From Escherichia coli (lineage in GTDB: Bacteria; Pseudomonadota; Gammaproteobacteria; Enterobacterales; Enterobacteriaceae), in the NCBI RefSeq assembly GCF_016026235.1, contig NZ_CP065613.1: a stretch of DNA of 64,000 nucleotides; one strand, 5' to 3'. Position numbers and translations under genes: made by a program. The notes beneath the pieces were generated by a model, which saw nothing but the letters and a program-made list of their open reading frames with translations, was not told the origin of the DNA and did no database searches. This document shows, piece by piece, positions 2,438-26,964 of this stretch. How positions within the stretch are numbered: the first letter of the stretch is position 1; every line of letters begins with the position of its first letter.

Positions 2438-3109
2438 TCACCGCTGCGTCACCCCTTCGTAAATCAGGCGTAGCGCGAATACACCAATAATTGCACCAAT
2501 AACCCGACTGGCAACGCGTTGCATACGCCCATAAGCACGACGCACAGCGGGCAAAGAAAACGCCTGACTAAGAAAGACTCGCCAGATAATTGATGCGAGT
2601 ACAATCCCCGCCCAGGCCATTAAACGTGCCCATGTTGGTGTTTCGGCATTTAATGTTACTGAGAAAATACTAATAAAAAATAAAACGGTTTGCGGGTTAG
2701 AGAGATCGGTAATTAATCCGCGGCGAAAAAAGACATACCAGGGGGCGTTAATCGGTTGTTGTAGTGTGCTCATTTGCGGTGTTGACTGGCGGCGCATGCT
2801 GCACCACGCAAACCATAAGAGATAAGCGCCGCCGACGATTCTGATAAGCGAAAAAATCTCCTCACACTGCGTAATTAGTGTTGCAAGACCAAACAAACCC
2901 AACCCGGAATAAAATGCATCGCCCAGCGCCACGCCCAGCCCGGTCAGCACCCCTGCGCGTCGACCGGAAGCCAGGCTGGTTTGTACTACCACAAAGAGAT
3001 TGGCTCCCGGATTAAAAAAAGTAATCACGAACAGTCCTACGGTCAGGTAAACGGCGTGCAAAGGATCCATAGTGATTTCATCCATAAATAAGTGAACTAA
3101 CTTCATCAT
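2438..3109 (-). CDS. yahN: LysE/RhtB-family amino-acid exporter (223 aa)
   Basis: 223-aa hydrophobic multi-helix ORF; conserved position between yahM and yahO. Confidence 0.85.
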   Translation of the reverse strand: MMKLVHLFMDEITMDPLHAVYLTVGLFVITFFNPGANLFVVVQTSLASGRRAGVLTGLGVALGDAFYSGLGLFGLATLITQCEEIFSLIRIVGGAYLLWFAWCSMRRQSTPQMSTLQQPINAPWYVFFRRGLITDLSNPQTVLFFISIFSVTLNAETPTWARLMAWAGIVLASIIWRVFLSQAFSLPAVRRAYGRMQRVASRVIGAIIGVFALRLIYEGVTQR

Positions 3110-3628: not shown

Positions 3629-5212
3629 TCAGCTTTTCAGCCGCCGCCAGAACGTCGTCCGGCTGATGCCTAAATAATTCGCCGCTGCTGTTTTATCGCC
3701 ATTAAATTTCTCCAGTGCCTGTTGTGGTGTCAGTAAGCGTGGAGCGGGAGTTTTCGCCGACTCGCGCGCCAGTTCCGGCAGTAGCAGCTGCAAAAATTGC
3801 GGCGTTAAATCCGGCGTCGGTTCCACACTTAAAAATAGCGCCAGTCGCTCCATCATATTGCGCAGTTCACGAATATTGCCCGGCCAGTCGTAGTGCACCA
3901 GCACGGTTTCGCTTGCCTGTAATCCCTGGCGTAATGCGGCAGAAAACGGGGCGGAGAGCGCCGCCAGAGACACTTTTAAAAAGCTTTCCGCCAGCGGCAG
4001 AATATCCGCCACCCGCTCGCGCAGTGGTGGCAATTGCAGACGCAAAATACTCAGCCGATAAAACAGATCACGGCGAAAACGTCCTTGCCGCATATCTTCT
4101 TCCAGATTGCAGTGAGTGGCGCTAATGACCCGTACATCTACCGGAACAGGCTGATGCCCGCCGACGCGGGTGACCTCTTTTTCTTCCAGCACCCGCAGCA
4201 GCCGGGTCTGCAACGGCAGCGGCATTTCGCCTATCTCGTCAAGAAACAGCGTGCCACCGTGGGCAATTTCGAACAGCCCGGCGCGACCTCCGCGTCGCGA
4301 GCCGGTAAACGCCCCTTCCTCATAGCCAAACAGTTCTGCTTCCAGCAGCGATTCGGCTATCGCCCCGCAGTTGACGGCAACAAACGGATGCGACTTTTTG
4401 CCCTGTCGCGCATCGTGGCGGGCAAAATATTCCCGATGAATCGCCTGGGCCGCCAGCTCTTTACCCGTCCCCGTTTCCCCCTCAATCAACACCGCTGCAC
4501 TGGAGCGGGCATACAGCAAAATAGTCTGCCGTACTTGTTGCATCTGTGGTGATTGACCGAGCATATCGCCCAGCACGTAACGAGTTCTCAGGGCGTTGCG
4601 GGTGGCATCGTGAGTGTTATGGCGTAACGACATGCGCGTCATATCCAGCGCATCGCTGAACGCCTGGCGCACGGTGGCGGCGGAATAGATAAAAATTCCG
4701 GTCATTCCGGCTTCTTCTGCCAAATCGGTAATCAGCCCTGCGCCGACCACCGCTTCGGTGCCGTTAGCTTTTAGCTCGTTAATCTGCCCGCGTGCGTCTT
4801 CCTCGGTAATGTAGCTACGTTGGTCGAGGCGCAAATTAAAGGTTTTTTGAAACGCCACCAGCGCTGGAATGGTTTCCTGATAGGTGACAACGCCGATAGA
4901 AGAGGTGAGTTTTCCGGCTTTTGCCAGTGCCTGTAACACATCGTAGCCGCTCGGTTTAATCAAAATAACTGGCACTGACAGGCGGCTTTTCAGGTACGCG
5001 CCGTTAGAGCCAGCAGCGATGATGGCGTCACAGCGTTCGTTTGCCAGTTTCTTGCGGATGTAGGTCACTGCTTTTTCAAAGCCAAGCTGAATAGGGGTAA
5101 TGTTCGCCAGGTGATCAAACTCGAGGCTGATATCGCGAAACAGCTCGAACAGGCGCGTTACAGATACCGTCCAGATAACCGGTTTGTCGTCATTAAGCCG
5201 TGGTGGATGTGC
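3629..5212 (-). CDS. prpR: Sigma-54-dependent transcriptional activator of propionate catabolism (528 aa)
   Basis: AAA+ sigma-54 activator motifs GETGTGKE and GAFTGS, C-terminal HTH; divergent from prpB; start taken at MAHPPRL (the ORF track extends 4 codons further upstream). Confidence 0.9.
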
Positions 5213-5391
5213 CATAGCGCACCGCAAAGTTAAGAAACCGAATATTGGGTTTAGTCTTGTTTCATAATTGTTGCAATGAAACGCGGTGAAACATTGCCTG
5301 AAACGTTAACTGAAACGCATATTTGCGGATTAGTTCATGACGTTATCTCTAACAAATTGAAATTAAACATTTAATTTTATTAAGGCAATTG

Positions 5392-15518: not shown

Positions 15519-16178
15519 GTGAAAGAGATTATTGATGGATTCCTTAAATTCCAGCGCGAGGCATTTCCGAAGCGGGAAGCCTTGTTTAAACAGCTGGCGA
15601 CACAGCAAAGCCCGCGCACACTTTTTATCTCCTGCTCCGACAGCCGTCTGGTCCCTGAGCTGGTGACGCAACGTGAGCCTGGCGATCTGTTCGTTATTCG
15701 CAACGCGGGCAATATCGTCCCTTCCTACGGGCCGGAACCCGGTGGCGTTTCTGCTTCGGTGGAGTATGCCGTCGCTGCGCTTCGGGTATCTGACATTGTG
15801 ATTTGTGGTCATTCCAACTGTGGCGCGATGACCGCCATTGCCAGCTGTCAGTGCATGGACCATATGCCTGCCGTCTCCCACTGGCTGCGTTATGCCGATT
15901 CAGCCCGCGTCGTTAATGAGGCGCGCCCGCATTCCGATTTACCGTCAAAAGCTGCGGCGATGGTACGTGAAAACGTCATTGCTCAGTTGGCTAATTTGCA
16001 AACTCATCCATCGGTGCGCCTGGCGCTCGAAGAGGGGCGGATCGCCCTGCACGGCTGGGTCTACGACATTGAAAGCGGCAGCATCGCAGCTTTTGACGGC
16101 GCAACCCGCCAGTTTGAGCCACTGGCCGCTAATCCTCGCGTTTGTGCCATACCGCTACGCCAACCTACCGCAGCGTAA
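15519..16178 (+). CDS. cynT: Beta-class carbonic anhydrase (219 aa)
   Basis: CSDSR and HSNCG zinc-ligand motifs. Confidence 0.93.
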
Positions 16179-16190
16179 CCTTATTTTTAA

Positions 16191-16679
<489 letters not shown>

Positions 16680-16711
16680 CAGCCATGCGCAATCATCAAA
16701 AGACGTTCACG

Positions 16712-17866
16712 ATGCTGCTGGTTCTGGTGCTGATTGGTCTTAATATGCGACCACTGCTCACCTCCGTCGGGCCACTGCTACCGCAATTGCGCCAGGCGAG
16801 CGGAATGAGCTTTAGCGTGGCTGCCCTGTTGACCGCTCTTCCGGTGGTCACCATGGGCGGGCTGGCGCTGGCCGGAAGCTGGCTTCATCAGCATGTCAGC
16901 GAACGTCGCAGTGTCGCCATCAGTCTGTTGCTGATTGCCGTCGGTGCATTGATGCGTGAGCTTTACCCCCAAAGTGCGCTGCTGCTTAGCAGCGCACTGC
17001 TTGGTGGGGTGGGGATCGGCATCATTCAGGCGGTGATGCCTTCGGTGATTAAACGGCGGTTTCAGCAGCGCACGCCACTGGTGATGGGGCTGTGGTCCGC
17101 GGCTCTGATGGGCGGCGGTGGACTTGGTGCCGCCATAACGCCCTGGTTAGTTCAACATAGCGAAACCTGGTATCAAACACTCGCCTGGTGGGCGCTGCCT
17201 GCCGTTGTTGCGCTCTTTGCCTGGTGGTGGCAAAGCACCCGCGAGGTCGCCTCTTCCCACAAGACAACAACCACTCCGGTTCGCGTGGTTTTCACTCCTC
17301 GCGCGTGGACGCTGGGTGTTTACTTTGGTCTGATTAACGGTGGTTACGCCAGCCTGATTGCCTGGTTACCCGCCTTCTATATTGAGATTGGTGCCAGCGC
17401 GCAGTACAGCGGTTCCTTGCTGGCATTGATGACGCTTGGGCAAGCCGCAGGAGCTTTGCTGATGCCTGCTATGGCTCGCCATCAGGATCGGCGCAAACTG
17501 TTAATGCTGGCGCTGGTGTTACAACTGGTGGGGTTCTGCGGCTTTATCTGGCTGCCGATGCAATTGCCGGTATTGTGGGCGATGGTGTGTGGATTAGGTC
17601 TGGGCGGCGCGTTTCCGCTCTGTTTGCTGCTGGCGCTCGATCACTCTGCGCAACCGGCTATTGCTGGCAAGCTGGTGGCGTTTATGCAGGGGATCGGTTT
17701 TATCATCGCCGGGCTTGCCCCGTGGTTTTCTGGCGTGCTGCGTAGTATCAGCGGCAATTACCTGATGGACTGGGCGTTTCATGCGCTGTGCGTCGTTGGG
17801 CTGATGATCATAACCCTGCGTTTTGCACCAGCACGTTTTCCGCAGCTGTGGGTCAAAGAGGCATGA
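16712..17866 (+). CDS. cynX: MFS cyanate transporter (384 aa)
   Basis: 12-TM MFS protein; start taken at MLLVLVLIG, 9 codons inside the ORF-track start. Confidence 0.85.
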   Translation: MLLVLVLIGLNMRPLLTSVGPLLPQLRQASGMSFSVAALLTALPVVTMGGLALAGSWLHQHVSERRSVAISLLLIAVGALMRELYPQSALLLSSALLGGVGIGIIQAVMPSVIKRRFQQRTPLVMGLWSAALMGGGGLGAAITPWLVQHSETWYQTLAWWALPAVVALFAWWWQSTREVASSHKTTTTPVRVVFTPRAWTLGVYFGLINGGYASLIAWLPAFYIEIGASAQYSGSLLALMTLGQAAGALLMPAMARHQDRRKLLMLALVLQLVGFCGFIWLPMQLPVLWAMVCGLGLGGAFPLCLLLALDHSAQPAIAGKLVAFMQGIGFIIAGLAPWFSGVLRSISGNYLMDWAFHALCVVGLMIITLRFAPARFPQLWVKEA

Positions 17867-17897
17867 TGCGACGCTTGTTCCTGCGCTTTGTTCATGC

Positions 17898-17962
17898 CGG
17901 ATGCGGCTAATGTAGATCGCTGAACTTGTAGGCCTGATAAGCGCAGCGTATCAGGCAATTTT
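17898..17962. repeat. REP element between cynX and lacA
   Basis: gccggatgcggc...gtaggcctgataagcgcagcgtatcaggc. Confidence 0.65.
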
Positions 17963-17968
17963 TATAAT

Positions 17969-18580
17969 TTAAACTGACGATTCAACTTTATAATCTTTGA
18001 AATAATATTGCTTATCCCGGTCGTTTATTTCGCGAATAACCCGACAAGGAACGCCAGCCGCCACGACGTTTGGTGGAATGTCTTTTGTGACGATACTACC
18101 CGCGCCAATAACAGAATTATCCCCGATGGTGACGCCTGGATTAATAACCACATGACTTCCGATCCAGACGTTATTGCCAATCGTTATCGGAAAAGAGTAC
18201 ATCTCGCCGTTTTTTCTCAATTCATGGTGTACAGGGTGTCCCGTAACAGAAAGAGTAACGTTGGGTGCAATCAGTACGTTATCACCGATTGTTACCGTGT
18301 AGTCATCGACAATGGTTAAATTGAAATTTGCATAAAAATTGCGGCCTATATGGATGTTGGAACCGTAAGAGAAATAGACAGGTGGTTCTATCCAGGCGTT
18401 TTCCCCTACCGTGGCAAACATTTCTTTAAGCAGGCTTTCCCTTTTTTCAACTTCTGATGGATGCGAGTGATTAAACTCATACATTAACGTTTTCCCACGA
18501 AGTCTTTTTTCAGGTAAGCCTTCGCACATATCGGTAAATAGCTTGCCTGCTTTTATTCTTTCTGTCATCGACATGTTCAT
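17969..18580 (-). CDS. lacA: Galactoside O-acetyltransferase (hexapeptide-repeat family), 203 aa
   Basis: Left-handed beta-helix hexapeptide repeats; start at MNMSMTERIK (the ORF track extends upstream into a REP). Confidence 0.9.
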   Translation of the reverse strand: MNMSMTERIKAGKLFTDMCEGLPEKRLRGKTLMYEFNHSHPSEVEKRESLLKEMFATVGENAWIEPPVYFSYGSNIHIGRNFYANFNLTIVDDYTVTIGDNVLIAPNVTLSVTGHPVHHELRKNGEMYSFPITIGNNVWIGSHVVINPGVTIGDNSVIGAGSIVTKDIPPNVVAAGVPCRVIREINDRDKQYYFKDYKVESSV

Positions 18581-18584
18581 TGCG

Positions 18585-18640
18585 ATCATTCCGTCCTGAT
18601 ATGTTGGTCGGATAAGGCGCTCGCGCCGCATCCGACATTG
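18585..18640. repeat. REP element in the lacY-lacA spacer
   Basis: gtcggataaggcgctcgcgccgcatccgac. Confidence 0.6.
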
Positions 18641-18645
18641 ATTGC

Positions 18646-19944
<1,299 letters not shown>

Positions 19945-19950
19945 TTATTA

Positions 19951-23063
<3,113 letters not shown>

Positions 23064-23147: not shown

Positions 23148-24230
23148 TCACTGCCCGCTTTCCAGTCGGGAAACTTGTCGTGCCAGCTGCATTAATGAAT
23201 CGGCCAACGCGCGGGGAGAGGCGGTTTGCGTCTTGGGCGCCAGGGTGGTTTTTCTTTTCACCAGAGAGACGGGCAAAAGCTGATTGCCCTTCACCGCCTG
23301 GCCCTGAGAGAGTTGCAGCAAGCGGTCCACGCTGGTTTGCCCCAGCAGGCGAAAATCCTGTTTGATGGTGGTTAACGGCGGGATATAACACGAGCTGTCT
23401 TCGGTATCGTCGTATCCCACTATCGAGATATCCGCACCAACGCGCAACCCGGACTCGGTAATGGCGCGCATTGCGCCCAGCGCCATCTGATCGTTGGCAA
23501 CCAGCATCGCAGTGGGAACGATGCCCTCATTTAGCATTTGCATGGTTTGTTGAAAACCGGACATGGCACTCCAGTCGCCCTCCCGTTCCGCTATCGGCTG
23601 AATTTGATTGCGAGTGAGATATTTATGCCAGCCCGCCAGACGCAGACGCGCCGAGACAGAACTTAATGGGCCCGCTAACAGCGCGATTTGCTGGTGACCC
23701 AATGCGACCAGATGCTCCACGCCCAGTCGCGTACCGTCTTCATGGGAGAAAATAATACTGTTGATGGGAGTCTGGTCAGAGACATCAAGAAATAACGCCG
23801 GAACATTAGCGCAGGCTGCTTCCACAGCAATGGCATCCTGGTCATCCAGCGGATAGTTAATGATCAGTCCACTGACGCGTTGCGCGAGAAGATTGTGCAC
23901 CGCCGCTTTACAGGCTTCGACGCCGCTTCGTTCTACCATCGACACCACCACGCTGGCACCCAGTTGATCGGCGCGAGATTTAATCGCCGCGACAATTTGC
24001 GACGGCGCGTGCAGGGCCAGACTGGAGGTGGCAACGCCAATCAGCAACGACTGTTTGCCCGCCAGTTGTTGTGCCACGCGGTTGGGAATGTAATTCAGCT
24101 CCGCCATTGCCGCTTCCACTTTTTCCCGCGTTTTCGCAGAAACGTGGCTGGCCTGGTTCACCACGCGGGAAACGGTCTGATAAGAGACACCGGCATACTC
24201 TGCGACATCGTATAGCGTTACTGGTTTCAC
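23148..24230 (-). CDS. lacI: Lactose repressor (LacI/GalR family), 360 aa, GTG start
   Basis: VKPVTLYDVAEYAGVSYQTVSRVVNQ HTH; ends ...RLESGQ immediately before the CAP site. Confidence 0.96.
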   Translation of the reverse strand: MKPVTLYDVAEYAGVSYQTVSRVVNQASHVSAKTREKVEAAMAELNYIPNRVAQQLAGKQSLLIGVATSSLALHAPSQIVAAIKSRADQLGASVVVSMVERSGVEACKAAVHNLLAQRVSGLIINYPLDDQDAIAVEAACANVPALFLDVSDQTPINSIIFSHEDGTRLGVEHLVALGHQQIALLAGPLSSVSARLRLAGWHKYLTRNQIQPIAEREGDWSAMSGFQQTMQMLNEGIVPTAMLVANDQMALGAMRAITESGLRVGADISIVGYDDTEDSSCYIPPLTTIKQDFRLLGQTSVDRLLQLSQGQAVKGNQLLPVSLVKRKTTLAPKTQTASPRALADSLMQLARQVSRLESGQ

Positions 24231-24265
24231 ATTCACCACCCTGAATTGACTCTCTTCCGAGCGCT

Positions 24266-24294
24266 ATCATGCCATACCGCGAAAGGTTTTGCGC
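24266..24294 (-). promoter_or_regulatory. lacI promoter (-35 GCGCAA, 17-bp spacer, -10 CATGAT), wild-type, not the Iq allele
   Basis: Reverse complement reads gcgcaaaacctttcgcggtatggcatgat; overlaps the stop codon of the upstream AraC-type gene. Confidence 0.8.
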
Positions 24295-25220
24295 CATTCG
24301 GCGGGGCTGACGCCGAAGTGAGATTTAAAATGCTGACGCCAGGTCACAGGTGAGAGAAAACCCACCTCAGCCGCTATCCGCTCAACGGGCAACTGACTGG
24401 ATCCCAACAGTTCCTGGCTACGGCGTAAGCGTTCAGTAATGAGCCATTCGGCGATACTCGAACCGGTCGCTTTCATAAAATGGCGAGTTAATGTGCGGCG
24501 ACTCATCATTACTCGCTGCGCCAGCGAGTCGAGATCATGCTGTTGCGCAATGTTTTGCCGCAGGTAATCCAGCAGGAGGTTTATGCGTTCATCATGGGTA
24601 TTTTTCGGCACCGGTTGCTCAATAAACTGCGCCTGACCGCCAGTGCGATATGGCGGTACGACCATCCGTCGGGCAATATGGTTAGCATAGTCGCTGCCAA
24701 AATGTTGCCGAACAATATACAAACAGCAATCCAGCGCCGCGGCAGTACCGGCAGAGGTAATAATGCCGTCATCGTCTACGTACAACGCGTTAATATCCAG
24801 ATGTGTTTGTGGAAAACGTGCCTGAAATTCACGCTCGAACTCCCAGTGTGTGGCGGCACGCTTATTTTTCAGTAAACCTGCATAGCCGAGCACAAACGTG
24901 CCCAGGCAAAGCCCGACAATCTGTGCGCCGTTATCCCGTGCGGTCGTTAAGGCTTCCAGCAGTTTTTGTGGCGGTTTTTGTGTAATGGTTCCCCAGTAAG
25001 GAATTATCACAATATCTGCCTGGATGACTGCGGTATAGTCATGGGGGGCGGTTACGGAAAACCCATCGGCAGAGTCCACGTTTCCCGGCTTTTCAGCGCA
25101 GATAATTACGTGAAAGTGTTTTTTCTCCGCCATTTTTTCGCTAAATACGATAAACGGTACGGAAAGGTGAAAAGGACTAAAACCGGCAACGGCGATAATG
25201 GCAACAGTTAGCGGGCGCAT
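24267..25220 (-). CDS. AraC-family transcriptional regulator with N-terminal DJ-1/PfpI (GlxA-like) domain, 317 aa
   Basis: C-terminal AraC HTH (RRTLTRHFMKATGSSIAEWLITERLRRSQELL ... WRQHFKSHFGVSPAEWRK); N-terminal class-I glutamine-amidotransferase-like fold. Confidence 0.75.
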   Translation of the reverse strand: MRPLTVAIIAVAGFSPFHLSVPFIVFSEKMAEKKHFHVIICAEKPGNVDSADGFSVTAPHDYTAVIQADIVIIPYWGTITQKPPQKLLEALTTARDNGAQIVGLCLGTFVLGYAGLLKNKRAATHWEFEREFQARFPQTHLDINALYVDDDGIITSAGTAAALDCCLYIVRQHFGSDYANHIARRMVVPPYRTGGQAQFIEQPVPKNTHDERINLLLDYLRQNIAQQHDLDSLAQRVMMSRRTLTRHFMKATGSSIAEWLITERLRRSQELLGSSQLPVERIAAEVGFLSPVTWRQHFKSHFGVSPAEWRKTFRGMA

Positions 25221-25239
25221 AACACTCTTTATCTCCGAA

Positions 25240-26028
25240 TTAGAATGTCAACGTTTCACCATCTTCTGGTACGTTCACAAATTCGATAATTTGATTATCT
25301 CTGGCGTATTCCTTGAGCGCATCACGCGTCAGCAAACAGTGGTTTACGGCCTCCATATGTGTCGCGACAATTTGCGCTTCTGGCAGGGTAAAATGTGTTT
25401 TGAGAATATCTTCTGCTCCCATAATTATCGCGCCATGCCCCAGAACATGCGCAAATCCGGCATTCAACACAACCACTTCTGGTTGGAAAGTTAGCATTGT
25501 AACCTCGACGTCGTCACGCCAGAGGGTATCGCCAGCCAGATAGAGCGTTTTCTCTGTCGGGTGCTGGAAAACAACGCCGCAGGCTGCGCCTAAACGCTTC
25601 GCCATAGCCGGGTCGGCATAGGTGCGATCGGAGCCGTGCTGCCCTGTCGTTTTATGCAGAGTAATATCGCCAAATTTAGTCTCGTCGGTAAGTACGGTAA
25701 GATGCGTAAATCCTTGTTTATTCAGTGATTCAGCATCTTGCTCATTTTGCACATAAATCAGTTTATCTTTAGGGACGACGCGGGAGGCTGTTTCGTCCCA
25801 GTGATCTTCATGCAAATGGGTCACGATTAGGGCGTCAACGTTGAGTAACGTTGTTAAATCGCACGGTAATTCTACCGTTGGATTGCGGATTTCTGCGCGT
25901 GCCGTTCCGGCAAAACCCGGATAACTTCCTTTAGGCGCGAGTAACGGGTCGATAAGAAATGTTTTGCCAGCGTATTGGATAATTTGGGTGGCATTACGAA
26001 TTTGCGTAATTTTCATGATTTGCTCCAC
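25240..26028 (-). CDS. MBL-fold (metallo-beta-lactamase superfamily) Zn-dependent hydrolase, 262 aa, substrate unknown
   Basis: HxHxDH motif (VTHLHEDHWDE) plus downstream His/Asp ligands; lies 19 bp upstream of the AraC-type gene on the same strand. Confidence 0.75.
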   Translation of the reverse strand: MEQIMKITQIRNATQIIQYAGKTFLIDPLLAPKGSYPGFAGTARAEIRNPTVELPCDLTTLLNVDALIVTHLHEDHWDETASRVVPKDKLIYVQNEQDAESLNKQGFTHLTVLTDETKFGDITLHKTTGQHGSDRTYADPAMAKRLGAACGVVFQHPTEKTLYLAGDTLWRDDVEVTMLTFQPEVVVLNAGFAHVLGHGAIIMGAEDILKTHFTLPEAQIVATHMEAVNHCLLTRDALKEYARDNQIIEFVNVPEDGETLTF

Positions 26029-26130
26029 ATCACAGTATTGATGTCATTAGCGTAGCGTGCAGCCCGTGCTGTGCATGTGGGCAAATGGGCGAATAACGAT
26101 GAGAATGGGCCAAATTACACATTGGCGTAA

Positions 26131-26964
26131 CTAGCGTAAATGCACGCCGCTTCGCCGTCCGGCCACCAGAATAGCCTGCGATTCAACCCCTTCTTCGATC
26201 TGTTTTGCTACCCGTTGTAGTGCCGGAAGATGCTTTTCCGCTGCCTGTTCGATGGTCATTGCGCTCGCCATATACACCAGATTCAGACAGCCAATCACCC
26301 GTTGTTCACTGCGCAGCGGTACGGCGATAGAGGTGATCTTCTCCTCCTGATCCCAGCCGCGGTAGTTCTGTCCGTAACCCTCTTTGCGCGCGCGCGCCAG
26401 AATGGCTTCCAGCTTTAACGGTTCTCGTGCCAGTTGATAGTCATCACCGGGGCGGGAGGCTAACATCTCGATTAATTCCTTGCGTTCTTGTTCCGGGCAA
26501 AAGGCCAGCCAGGTCAGGCCCGAGGCGGTTTTCAGAAGCGGTAAACGTCGCCCGACCATTGCCCAGTGAAAGGATAAGCGGCTGAAACGGTGAGTGGTTT
26601 CGCGTACCACCATTGCATCAACATCCAGCGTGGACACATCTGTCGGCCATACTACTTCGCGCAACAGATCGCCCAGCAGTGGGGCCGCCAGTGCAGAAAT
26701 CCACTGTTCGTCACGAAATCCTTCGCTTAATTGCCGCACTTTGATGGTCAGACGAAAACTATCATCGGAGGGACTACGCCGGACATATCCCTCTTCCTGC
26801 AGCGTCTCCAGCAGTCGCCGCACAGTGGTGCGATGCAGGCCGCTGAGTTCCGCCAGCAGCCCGACGCTGGCACCGCCGTCAAGTTTATTTAACATATTTA
26901 ATAACATTAGACCGCGGGTTAAGCCGCGCACGGTTTTGTATTCCGTCTGCTCATTGTTCTGCAT
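26131..26964 (-). CDS. mhpR: IclR-family activator of the mhp operon (277 aa)
   Basis: IclR HTH and effector domain; start at MQNNEQTEYK; divergent from mhpA. Confidence 0.9.
   Translation of the reverse strand: MQNNEQTEYKTVRGLTRGLMLLNMLNKLDGGASVGLLAELSGLHRTTVRRLLETLQEEGYVRRSPSDDSFRLTIKVRQLSEGFRDEQWISALAAPLLGDLLREVVWPTDVSTLDVDAMVVRETTHRFSRLSFHWAMVGRRLPLLKTASGLTWLAFCPEQERKELIEMLASRPGDDYQLAREPLKLEAILARARKEGYGQNYRGWDQEEKITSIAVPLRSEQRVIGCLNLVYMASAMTIEQAAEKHLPALQRVAKQIEEGVESQAILVAGRRSGVHLR

Follow-up and report, generated by a model that had tools for sequence, protein, structure and literature searches.

Genes and features of the lacI–mhpR interval

The DNA considered here is a stretch of 64,000 nucleotides from Escherichia coli (assembly GCF_016026235.1, contig NZ_CP065613.1), hereafter the window, and its subject is a two-gene islet between lacI and mhpR that encodes a metallo-β-lactamase (MBL)-fold hydrolase and the regulator OvrA. 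This islet is O island 19 (OI-19) of enterohaemorrhagic E. coli (EHEC) O157:H7, which has already been described and is seen here in a non-O157 strain. It probably represents a sax-type two-gene module for the detoxification of electrophiles, pairing an isothiocyanate (ITC) hydrolase with a SaxC-type regulator.

The interval holds two co-oriented minus-strand open reading frames (ORFs), at 25240..26028 and 24267..25220, which lie 19 nt apart. The sequence observation of the original prediction, namely two co-oriented genes between lacI and mhpR, a 19-nt gap and a regulator of 317 aa, is thereby confirmed. The length of 262 aa given there for the hydrolase is revised to 258 aa. Its start codon is likely the ATG at 26016, because GGAG precedes it, RefSeq calls it and all homologues, including Protein Data Bank (PDB) entry 6BRM, share the same start; the ORF finder had extended the frame to the GTG at 26028. 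The features of the interval are as follows.

23148..24230 (annotated start), minus strand: lacI, the downstream flank, from the ORF list and annotation
24267..25220, minus strand: ovrA, the z0442 orthologue, encoding a GlxA-type regulator of 317 aa with an N-terminal DJ-1/PfpI-like domain and a C-terminal AraC helix-turn-helix
25221..25239, minus strand: hydrolase–ovrA spacer of 19 nt, purine-rich and resembling a ribosome-binding site (RBS), from the sequence
25240..26016, minus strand: saxA-like gene for an MBL-fold hydrolase of 258 aa, the z0443 orthologue, a predicted ITC hydrolase
26017..26130, minus strand: mhpR–hydrolase intergenic region of 114 nt, with a conserved element, a possible −10 TACGCT and a palindrome
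26131..26964, minus strand: mhpR, the upstream flank, with stop codon TAG here and TGA in K-12
24301..26134: segment of 1834 bp missing from K-12, from alignment to the K-12 spacer, where ATGGTGTCAA (10 nt) stands instead

The 1834-bp extent matches the published size of OI-19, and the two window proteins each differ from their EDL933 counterparts at two residues (OvrA, 315/317 identical; hydrolase and Z0443, 256/258), which equates the islet with the known island. One RefSeq record for the regulator reads 'ovrA: OI-19-encoded virulence regulator OvrA'. In two reviews of the EHEC literature, OI-19 is an 1834-bp island with z0442 (ovrA) and z0443, the latter called unknown; summarising Liu et al. 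2020, they report that OvrA binds the promoter of LEE1, in the locus of enterocyte effacement (LEE), at a 17-bp motif, activates ler and promotes adherence and colonisation (PMC8565820, PMC10877973). The LEE is not within the 64-kb window.

A predicted SaxA-family hydrolase

Pfam searches bear out the domains originally assigned to both proteins, with Lactamase_B_2 in the hydrolase (4.9e-11) and DJ-1_PfpI (1.6e-11) and HTH_18 (3.4e-19) in OvrA. The HxHxDH motif that had been reported as intact is indeed present as HLHEDH, and the metal ligands are invariant in a 12-sequence family alignment (H67, H69, D71, H72, H127, D163 and H220 in the 258-aa numbering). The view that no substrate could be assigned does not stand, as characterised ITC hydrolases are close homologues of this protein along its full length. 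When searched against PDB sequences, the hydrolase aligned along its full length with 6BRM, 'isothiocyanate hydrolase from Delia radicum gut bacteria / SaxA' (54% identity across 259 columns, E 6e-88), and showed 46% identity to an uncharacterised Veillonella protein, 3RPC. The AlphaFold2 model of the hydrolase (predicted local distance difference test score 93) superimposes on 6BRM_A with a template modelling score of 0.97 and a root-mean-square deviation of 1.2 Å. Identity to the P. syringae-group SaxA, which carries the UniRef label 'Aliphatic isothioc...', is 51%.

The products of R-N=C=S hydrolysis by SaxA enzymes are the amine and carbonyl sulfide (COS), and two reports describe the family as widespread in Enterobacterales (PMC7036374, PMC7303113). 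Five SaxA clusters (CL1-CL5), divergent down to 44.9% identity, are all active ITC hydrolases according to one of these reports (PMC7036374), which also gives accessions for reference members. The E. coli hydrolase, at 54% to 6BRM and 51% to the P. syringae-group protein, falls within the internal identity range of the family and keeps all metal ligands, which together place it in the SaxA family by sequence and predicted fold. From this relationship we infer that the E. coli enzyme hydrolyses ITCs. Readings as a β-lactamase, a lactonase or UlaG were considered and rejected, since the close structure and sequence matches are only ITC hydrolases and the identity of other, unrelated MBL structures does not exceed 21%. 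Some homologues are labelled 'UlaG' by JGI.

The hydrolase lacks a signal peptide. Its Pseudomonas homologues (L066, L078, L080, L082, L086, L088, L090 and L095) begin with a signal peptide of about 35 aa, and the enterobacterial ones do not; this difference implies that detoxification would be periplasmic in Pseudomonas and cytoplasmic in enterobacteria. In EDL933, Z0443 is well expressed and its expression is 10-fold RpoS-dependent (PMC2907692).

OvrA as a candidate SaxC orthologue

The regulator that occupies the SaxC position in the saxCAB locus of the P. syringae group shares 44% identity with OvrA along the whole protein. At that locus a second, distantly related GlxA-type regulator adjoins the SaxC-type one, and its identity to OvrA is only 28%. 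These comparisons identify OvrA as a likely member of the SaxC orthologue group. Two other assignments were tried and rejected. The score of OvrA against the FtrA equivalog (NCBIfam NF006902) is 325 bits, with a curated cut-off of 425, and membership of GbdR fails at 125 bits against a cut-off of 480.

The N-terminal domain of OvrA is similar to the isonitrile hydratase InhA (E 3e-12). Among 66 saxA-linked regulators, C105 (in GLCLG, the DJ-1 nucleophile elbow), H18, H125, W126, D164 and C165 are invariant. Residue 18 is a histidine, where DJ-1 presumably has an acidic residue. It is plausible that this domain senses an electrophile, either covalently or in a pocket.

Conserved linkage of hydrolase and regulator genes

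The association of the two genes was surveyed with one genome per species, among at least 594 hydrolase relatives, of which the best 80 loci, all 49-80% identical, were kept. An OvrA-type gene lies within 800 bp of the hydrolase gene in 61 of these 80 loci, and the arrangements are distributed as follows.

49/80 loci: OvrA-type gene with both domains, directly downstream and co-oriented
12/80 loci: OvrA-type gene divergent, upstream
4/80 loci: OvrA-type gene divergent, about 1.4-2.4 kb off
1/80 loci: OvrA-type gene frameshifted (Citrobacter amalonaticus)
5/80 loci: locus truncated
9/80 loci: OvrA-type gene absent

The co-oriented order occurs in Enterobacterales, Aeromonas, Marinomonas, Salinivibrio and Geomonas, and the divergent order in Pseudomonas, Stutzerimonas and others. 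The P. syringae-group locus (L095) has the regulator divergent from SaxA, which is followed by an isochorismatase gene, and this is the published saxCAB layout; from the cluster name and its position, the divergent regulator is probably SaxC itself. The earlier idea of a small hydrolase–regulator module fits the pairing kept across species and the conserved element upstream; its inducibility is presumed. Taken together, the linkage, the 44% identity to the regulator in the SaxC position and the 37-nt element described below make it very likely that the hydrolase and OvrA form a regulator–enzyme module.

A candidate operator and other cis signals

The intergenic region upstream of the hydrolase gene contains one feature that recurs across genera.

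26077..26113, minus strand: conserved bipartite 37-nt element TTGGCCCATTCTCATCGTTATTCGCCCATTTGCCCAC, which begins 97 nt ahead of the hydrolase ATG and is a candidate operator for the OvrA/SaxC-type regulator

This element is unique in the window, with 0 occurrences expected by chance. Citrobacter, Enterobacter, Klebsiella, Pectobacterium and the P. syringae-group locus have near-identical elements, set about 93-120 nt before the hydrolase start codon. At other Pseudomonas loci, where a signal peptide is present, the element is found at −203 to −212 as counted from the aligned mature protein start. In 43/94 loci there is exactly one copy of its first half; on the hydrolase strand, the distance from this half to the downstream hydrolase match start is about 80-150 nt in the 80 species loci plus L006 and L007, and in the six E. 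coli loci the half is at the position seen in the window. The full element occurs in 29/88 loci, including the saxC–saxA intergenic region of the P. syringae group, with 1 off-target match in 890 kb. Its 3′ end would abut the −35 position, as for a class II activator of the AraC type. These properties suggest that OvrA controls the hydrolase gene through the conserved element.

A terminator scan found none between the hydrolase gene and ovrA, and this, with the 19-nt gap, makes co-transcription of the two genes likely. A perfect palindrome, ACATCA-N6-TGATGT, lies at 26027-26044 directly upstream of the hydrolase RBS; one arm is substituted in Z0117EC0005, and the palindrome is absent in Citrobacter and Enterobacter. 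The published OvrA motif of LEE1, GACATTTAATGATAATG, has only two matches in the window, with 3 mismatches each, at 2645-2661 (plus strand) and at 22632-22648 (minus strand, inside lacZ); 0.13 were expected.

Distribution in E. coli

A survey of 5426 complete E. coli genomes settles the distribution that the original prediction had left to be surveyed: K-12 and the majority of E. coli lack the islet.

435/5426: full islet
487/5426: short 3′ stump of the regulator gene only
about 4465/5426: flanks only, joined as in K-12
39/5426: match absent

The carriers include O157:H7 (EDL933 among them), O55:H7 and O145. Both ORFs are intact in the window and in five other sampled E. coli genomes (ESDR8, Z0117EC0005, O145 RM12522-C8, EDL933 and 88COLEC). 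The genome closest to the window is FDAARGOS_943 (99.9%), with O157 at 99.2%. In FDAARGOS_943, ovrA is interrupted by a nonsense codon (S254*), lacY contains an internal stop and ISEc60 splits cynX; in the window, ovrA, lacY and cynX are intact (compared over 16685-19899 and 24267-25220).

Ancestry of the islet and its loss

As had been stated, mhpR and lacI are adjacent in K-12, where the spacer is just 76 nt (DH5alpha). K-12 keeps window positions 24231-24300, that is, the ovrA stop codon and the last 10 codons (EWRKTFRGMA*). The stump is followed by the 10 unrelated nucleotides ATGGTGTCAA, which include the mhpR stop codon TGA, and then by mhpR. The proposal that K-12 lost the islet by deletion is correct: the end of the regulator gene remains there, and Citrobacter shares the arrangement of the window. 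B2-type genomes (the 487 complete genomes with a stump) hold a 99-nt ovrA 3′ stump beside lacI, joined directly to yaiL, with mhpR–mhpT missing (L002, JCM 20135, 5168-5340). Their deletion is independent of that in K-12, and larger.

On each side of the islet stands one copy of an imperfect direct repeat, CATT(C)GGCG, and these copies mark the deletion boundary.

24295..24303, plus strand: left copy of the imperfect direct repeat, CATTCGGCG
26120..26127, plus strand: right copy of the imperfect direct repeat, CATTGGCG

Islet-less E. coli show at least two junctions of equal length, the majority K-12 type ATGGTGTCAA (L003, 2170-2235) and the rare GCGGCATTAA (L099, 262-341). The rare junction (OkiPb01682, 504838) agrees at 13/16 positions with the predicted product of a repeat-mediated deletion. 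A simple repeat-mediated origin was rejected for the K-12 junction, for which the length fits but 8/10 junction nucleotides differ from the window-type sequence.

These remnants bear on the lacI promoter. Its hexamers, which we take to be the −35 GCGCAA at 24289-24294 and the −10 CATGAT at 24266-24271 on the minus strand (Calos 1978), both lie (24266..24294, minus strand) inside the last 10 ovrA codons, and CATGAT overlaps the ovrA stop codon. The K-12 deletion edge is 6 nt upstream of this −35. With the hexamers inside the ovrA 3′ end and the deletion edge so placed, the K-12 lacI upstream region is an ovrA stump fused to the end of mhpR. The end of C. rodentium ovrA has sequence similar to the lacI hexamer region.

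In C. rodentium the hydrolase gene, ovrA, lacI, lacZ and lacY follow one another in the same order and orientation. Loci from eight further Citrobacter species (L011-L018) have hydrolase and ovrA genes beside lac genes, with lacI in 7/8, lacZ in 7/8 and an upstream mhpR in 3/8. About 2 kb separates mhpR from the hydrolase gene at L011-L018. Between ovrA and lacI, L011, L012, L014, L016 and L017 have about 0.75 kb extra and L015 has only about 0.14 kb; L013 is without lacI. In C. amalonaticus (L019) ovrA is frameshifted and lacI is absent. None of the best 80 loci kept comes from Escherichia, which evidently means that the representatives scanned for Escherichia species have no close copy.

Non-synonymous divergence (dN) from C. 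rodentium is 0.19 for ovrA, 0.17 for the hydrolase gene and 0.16 for lacI. The ratio of non-synonymous to synonymous divergence (dN/dS) is 0.05-0.2, and ovrA has 22 synonymous and 4 non-synonymous changes; as read from these substitution patterns, purifying selection on the islet genes is shown. The GC content is 0.46-0.53 in the islet and 0.53-0.58 in the flanks. The locus lacks the marks of a horizontal island: it holds two ORFs only, and no integrase, tRNA, insertion sequence (IS) or other mobility feature was found there. Citrobacter synteny, the ovrA remnants in islet-less E. coli, a dN like that of lacI and the absence of mobility genes indicate that the islet is ancestral to the mhp–lac neighbourhood of E. 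coli and Citrobacter and was repeatedly lost, rather than acquired in O157.

Proposed function and alternative explanations

In the mechanism that we propose, a cytoplasmic zinc-dependent hydrolase of the SaxA family would most likely convert ITCs according to R-N=C=S + H2O -> R-NH2 + COS. The ovrA product would act as a SaxC-type regulator, with its DJ-1/PfpI-like sensor fused to an AraC DNA-binding domain, and would most likely bind the 37-nt element that ends near the −35 of the hydrolase gene. Ligand-bound OvrA would then activate the hydrolase–ovrA transcript, with hydrolase expression dependent on RpoS as well. It is speculation that OvrA has an ITC or a similar electrophile as its ligand. 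In this reading OvrA was recruited in LEE-positive strains to activate LEE1 and ler. Most E. coli lost the module through a 1.8-kb deletion bounded by short repeats, and B2-type strains through a larger one.

A more far-reaching version, which we offer only tentatively and regard as rather unlikely, is that the native task of OvrA is to sense electrophiles, possibly through a Cys105/His125 pocket, and to switch on the ITC hydrolase, and that this sensor was wired to LEE1 in the EHEC and enteropathogenic E. coli lineages that keep the module. Dietary ITCs, from crucifers or from brassica forage in cattle, would then be detoxified and would also modulate type III secretion and colonisation. If OvrA is such an electrophile sensor, it follows that the classical lacI promoter of K-12 lies within the remnant of a sensor-regulator gene. 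Across the lac operon from the islet, at 15519-17866, the window carries cynT (a carbonic anhydrase gene), cynS and cynX. Carbonic anhydrases hydrolyse COS, the by-product of ITC hydrolysis. A functional link between cynT and the ITC hydrolase would be pure speculation.

Several observations weigh against the proposed detoxification module. The module is missing from 92% of E. coli genomes. Deletion of z0443 had no virulence phenotype according to EHEC reviews (PMC8565820, PMC10877973), and in P. viridiflava ITC did not induce saxC and induced saxA weakly (PMC12903958). The published LEE1 footprint GACATTTAATGATAATG and the conserved element are not alike, and no match to the footprint within 3 mismatches was found near the islet. 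A minus-strand scan of the islet found no consensus sigma-70 promoter, a result that is uninformative for an activator-dependent promoter. Cys105 is weakened as evidence of ITC sensing, given that the unlinked GlxA paralogue keeps the cysteine too. The authors of the SaxA study suggest that members in non-plant bacteria 'may serve additional purposes' (PMC7036374).

This last remark, made of a family that they find widespread in Enterobacterales not associated with plants, leads to the possibility that the substrate differs. ITC hydrolysis would then be a side activity, and the enzyme would act on, and OvrA would sense, another small gut electrophile or metabolite such as a heterocumulene, a thiocarbamate, a lactone or an ester. 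The 46% identity to 3RPC points the same way, Veillonella parvula being an anaerobe of mouth and gut, as does a hydrolase gene that is RpoS-controlled rather than known to be ITC-induced (PMC2907692). Against this stand the tested members cited, all of which hydrolyse ITCs, including the five clusters and a fungal SaxA at only 20% identity (PMC7036374, PMC7303113); the E. coli hydrolase is 51-54% identical to tested or near-tested members, and both the sax-type regulator and the candidate operator are conserved. We consider a different substrate unlikely, although less so than the two explanations that follow.

The EHEC literature offers a view in which OI-19 is a horizontally acquired island of the O157 lineage whose role is virulence regulation by OvrA, with the hydrolase as a passenger. 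The binding of OvrA to LEE1, the activation of ler and the aid to colonisation agree with it, as does the z0443 deletion result (PMC8565820, PMC10877973), and so do the presence of the islet in O157:H7, O55:H7 and O145 genomes and its GC content slightly below that of the flanks. Yet the locus is free of mobility features, K-12-type and B2-type genomes hold different truncated ovrA 3′ ends, which implies that the gene was there first, and the order mhpR...saxA–ovrA...lacI–lacZ is common to Citrobacter species, from which the islet diverges as much as lacI does. The gene pair and its upstream element are moreover conserved in dozens of genera without the LEE, so that acquisition by the O157 lineage appears very improbable. 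Equally improbable is that the pair is a decaying relic, leaving E. coli and functionless in this strain. Its loss in about 92% of complete genomes through at least two kinds of deletion, the S254* codon in FDAARGOS_943 and the frameshift in C. amalonaticus would suit such decay, but both ORFs are intact in six sampled E. coli genomes, synonymous changes dominate, Z0443 is well expressed in EDL933 (PMC2907692), and OvrA activity is measurable (PMC8565820, PMC10877973).

An electrophile-detoxification module descended from the E. coli/Citrobacter ancestor is the reading that we favour. The searchable literature yielded no link between saxA or an ITC hydrolase and E. coli O157 or z0443. The SaxA type of z0443, the SaxC type of OvrA with its candidate operator, and the ancestral status of OI-19 seem to be absent from the searchable papers. 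If the enzyme and sensor work as proposed, they would provide a testable link from dietary glucosinolate products to EHEC fitness and LEE regulation. The analysis also gives a cleaner account of the origin of the K-12 lacI upstream region, and an ancestral islet reverses the usual reading of an O island as acquired.

Comparison with known systems

The islet shares with OI-19 of EDL933 its position between lacI and mhpR, its 1834-bp extent relative to K-12 and its two ORFs, and differs in that the window strain is not O157. The interpretation differs too: the literature treats the island as O157-specific, whereas here it appears ancestral and z0443 is SaxA-like.

The hydrolase resembles the SaxA enzymes of P. 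syringae, Pectobacterium and 6BRM in full-length MBL-fold homology, identical metal ligands and a near-superimposable predicted fold. The activity of the E. coli protein is a prediction from sequence, and it lacks the signal peptide found in Pseudomonas homologues. Its gene is chromosomal in a species of the animal gut, whereas its relatives belong to plant pathogens or to a plasmid of insect-gut bacteria.

In domain architecture OvrA is like the GlxA/FtrA-type (GATase1-like) AraC regulators such as GbdR, and its RefSeq name is 'GlxA family transcriptional regulator'; however, it scores below the curated cut-offs and belongs to an orthologue group of its own, linked to saxA. Its N-terminal domain retains C105, the nucleophile-elbow cysteine of DJ-1/PfpI enzymes such as InhA, but is fused to a DNA-binding domain.

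The closest parallel in organisation is saxCAB of P. syringae, in which a regulator with DJ-1_PfpI and HTH_18 domains, 44% identical to OvrA, likewise adjoins the hydrolase gene, with the 37-nt element upstream. There the regulator gene is divergent and upstream, whereas in E. coli it is downstream and co-oriented, and the isochorismatase-like saxB is without a counterpart in E. coli.

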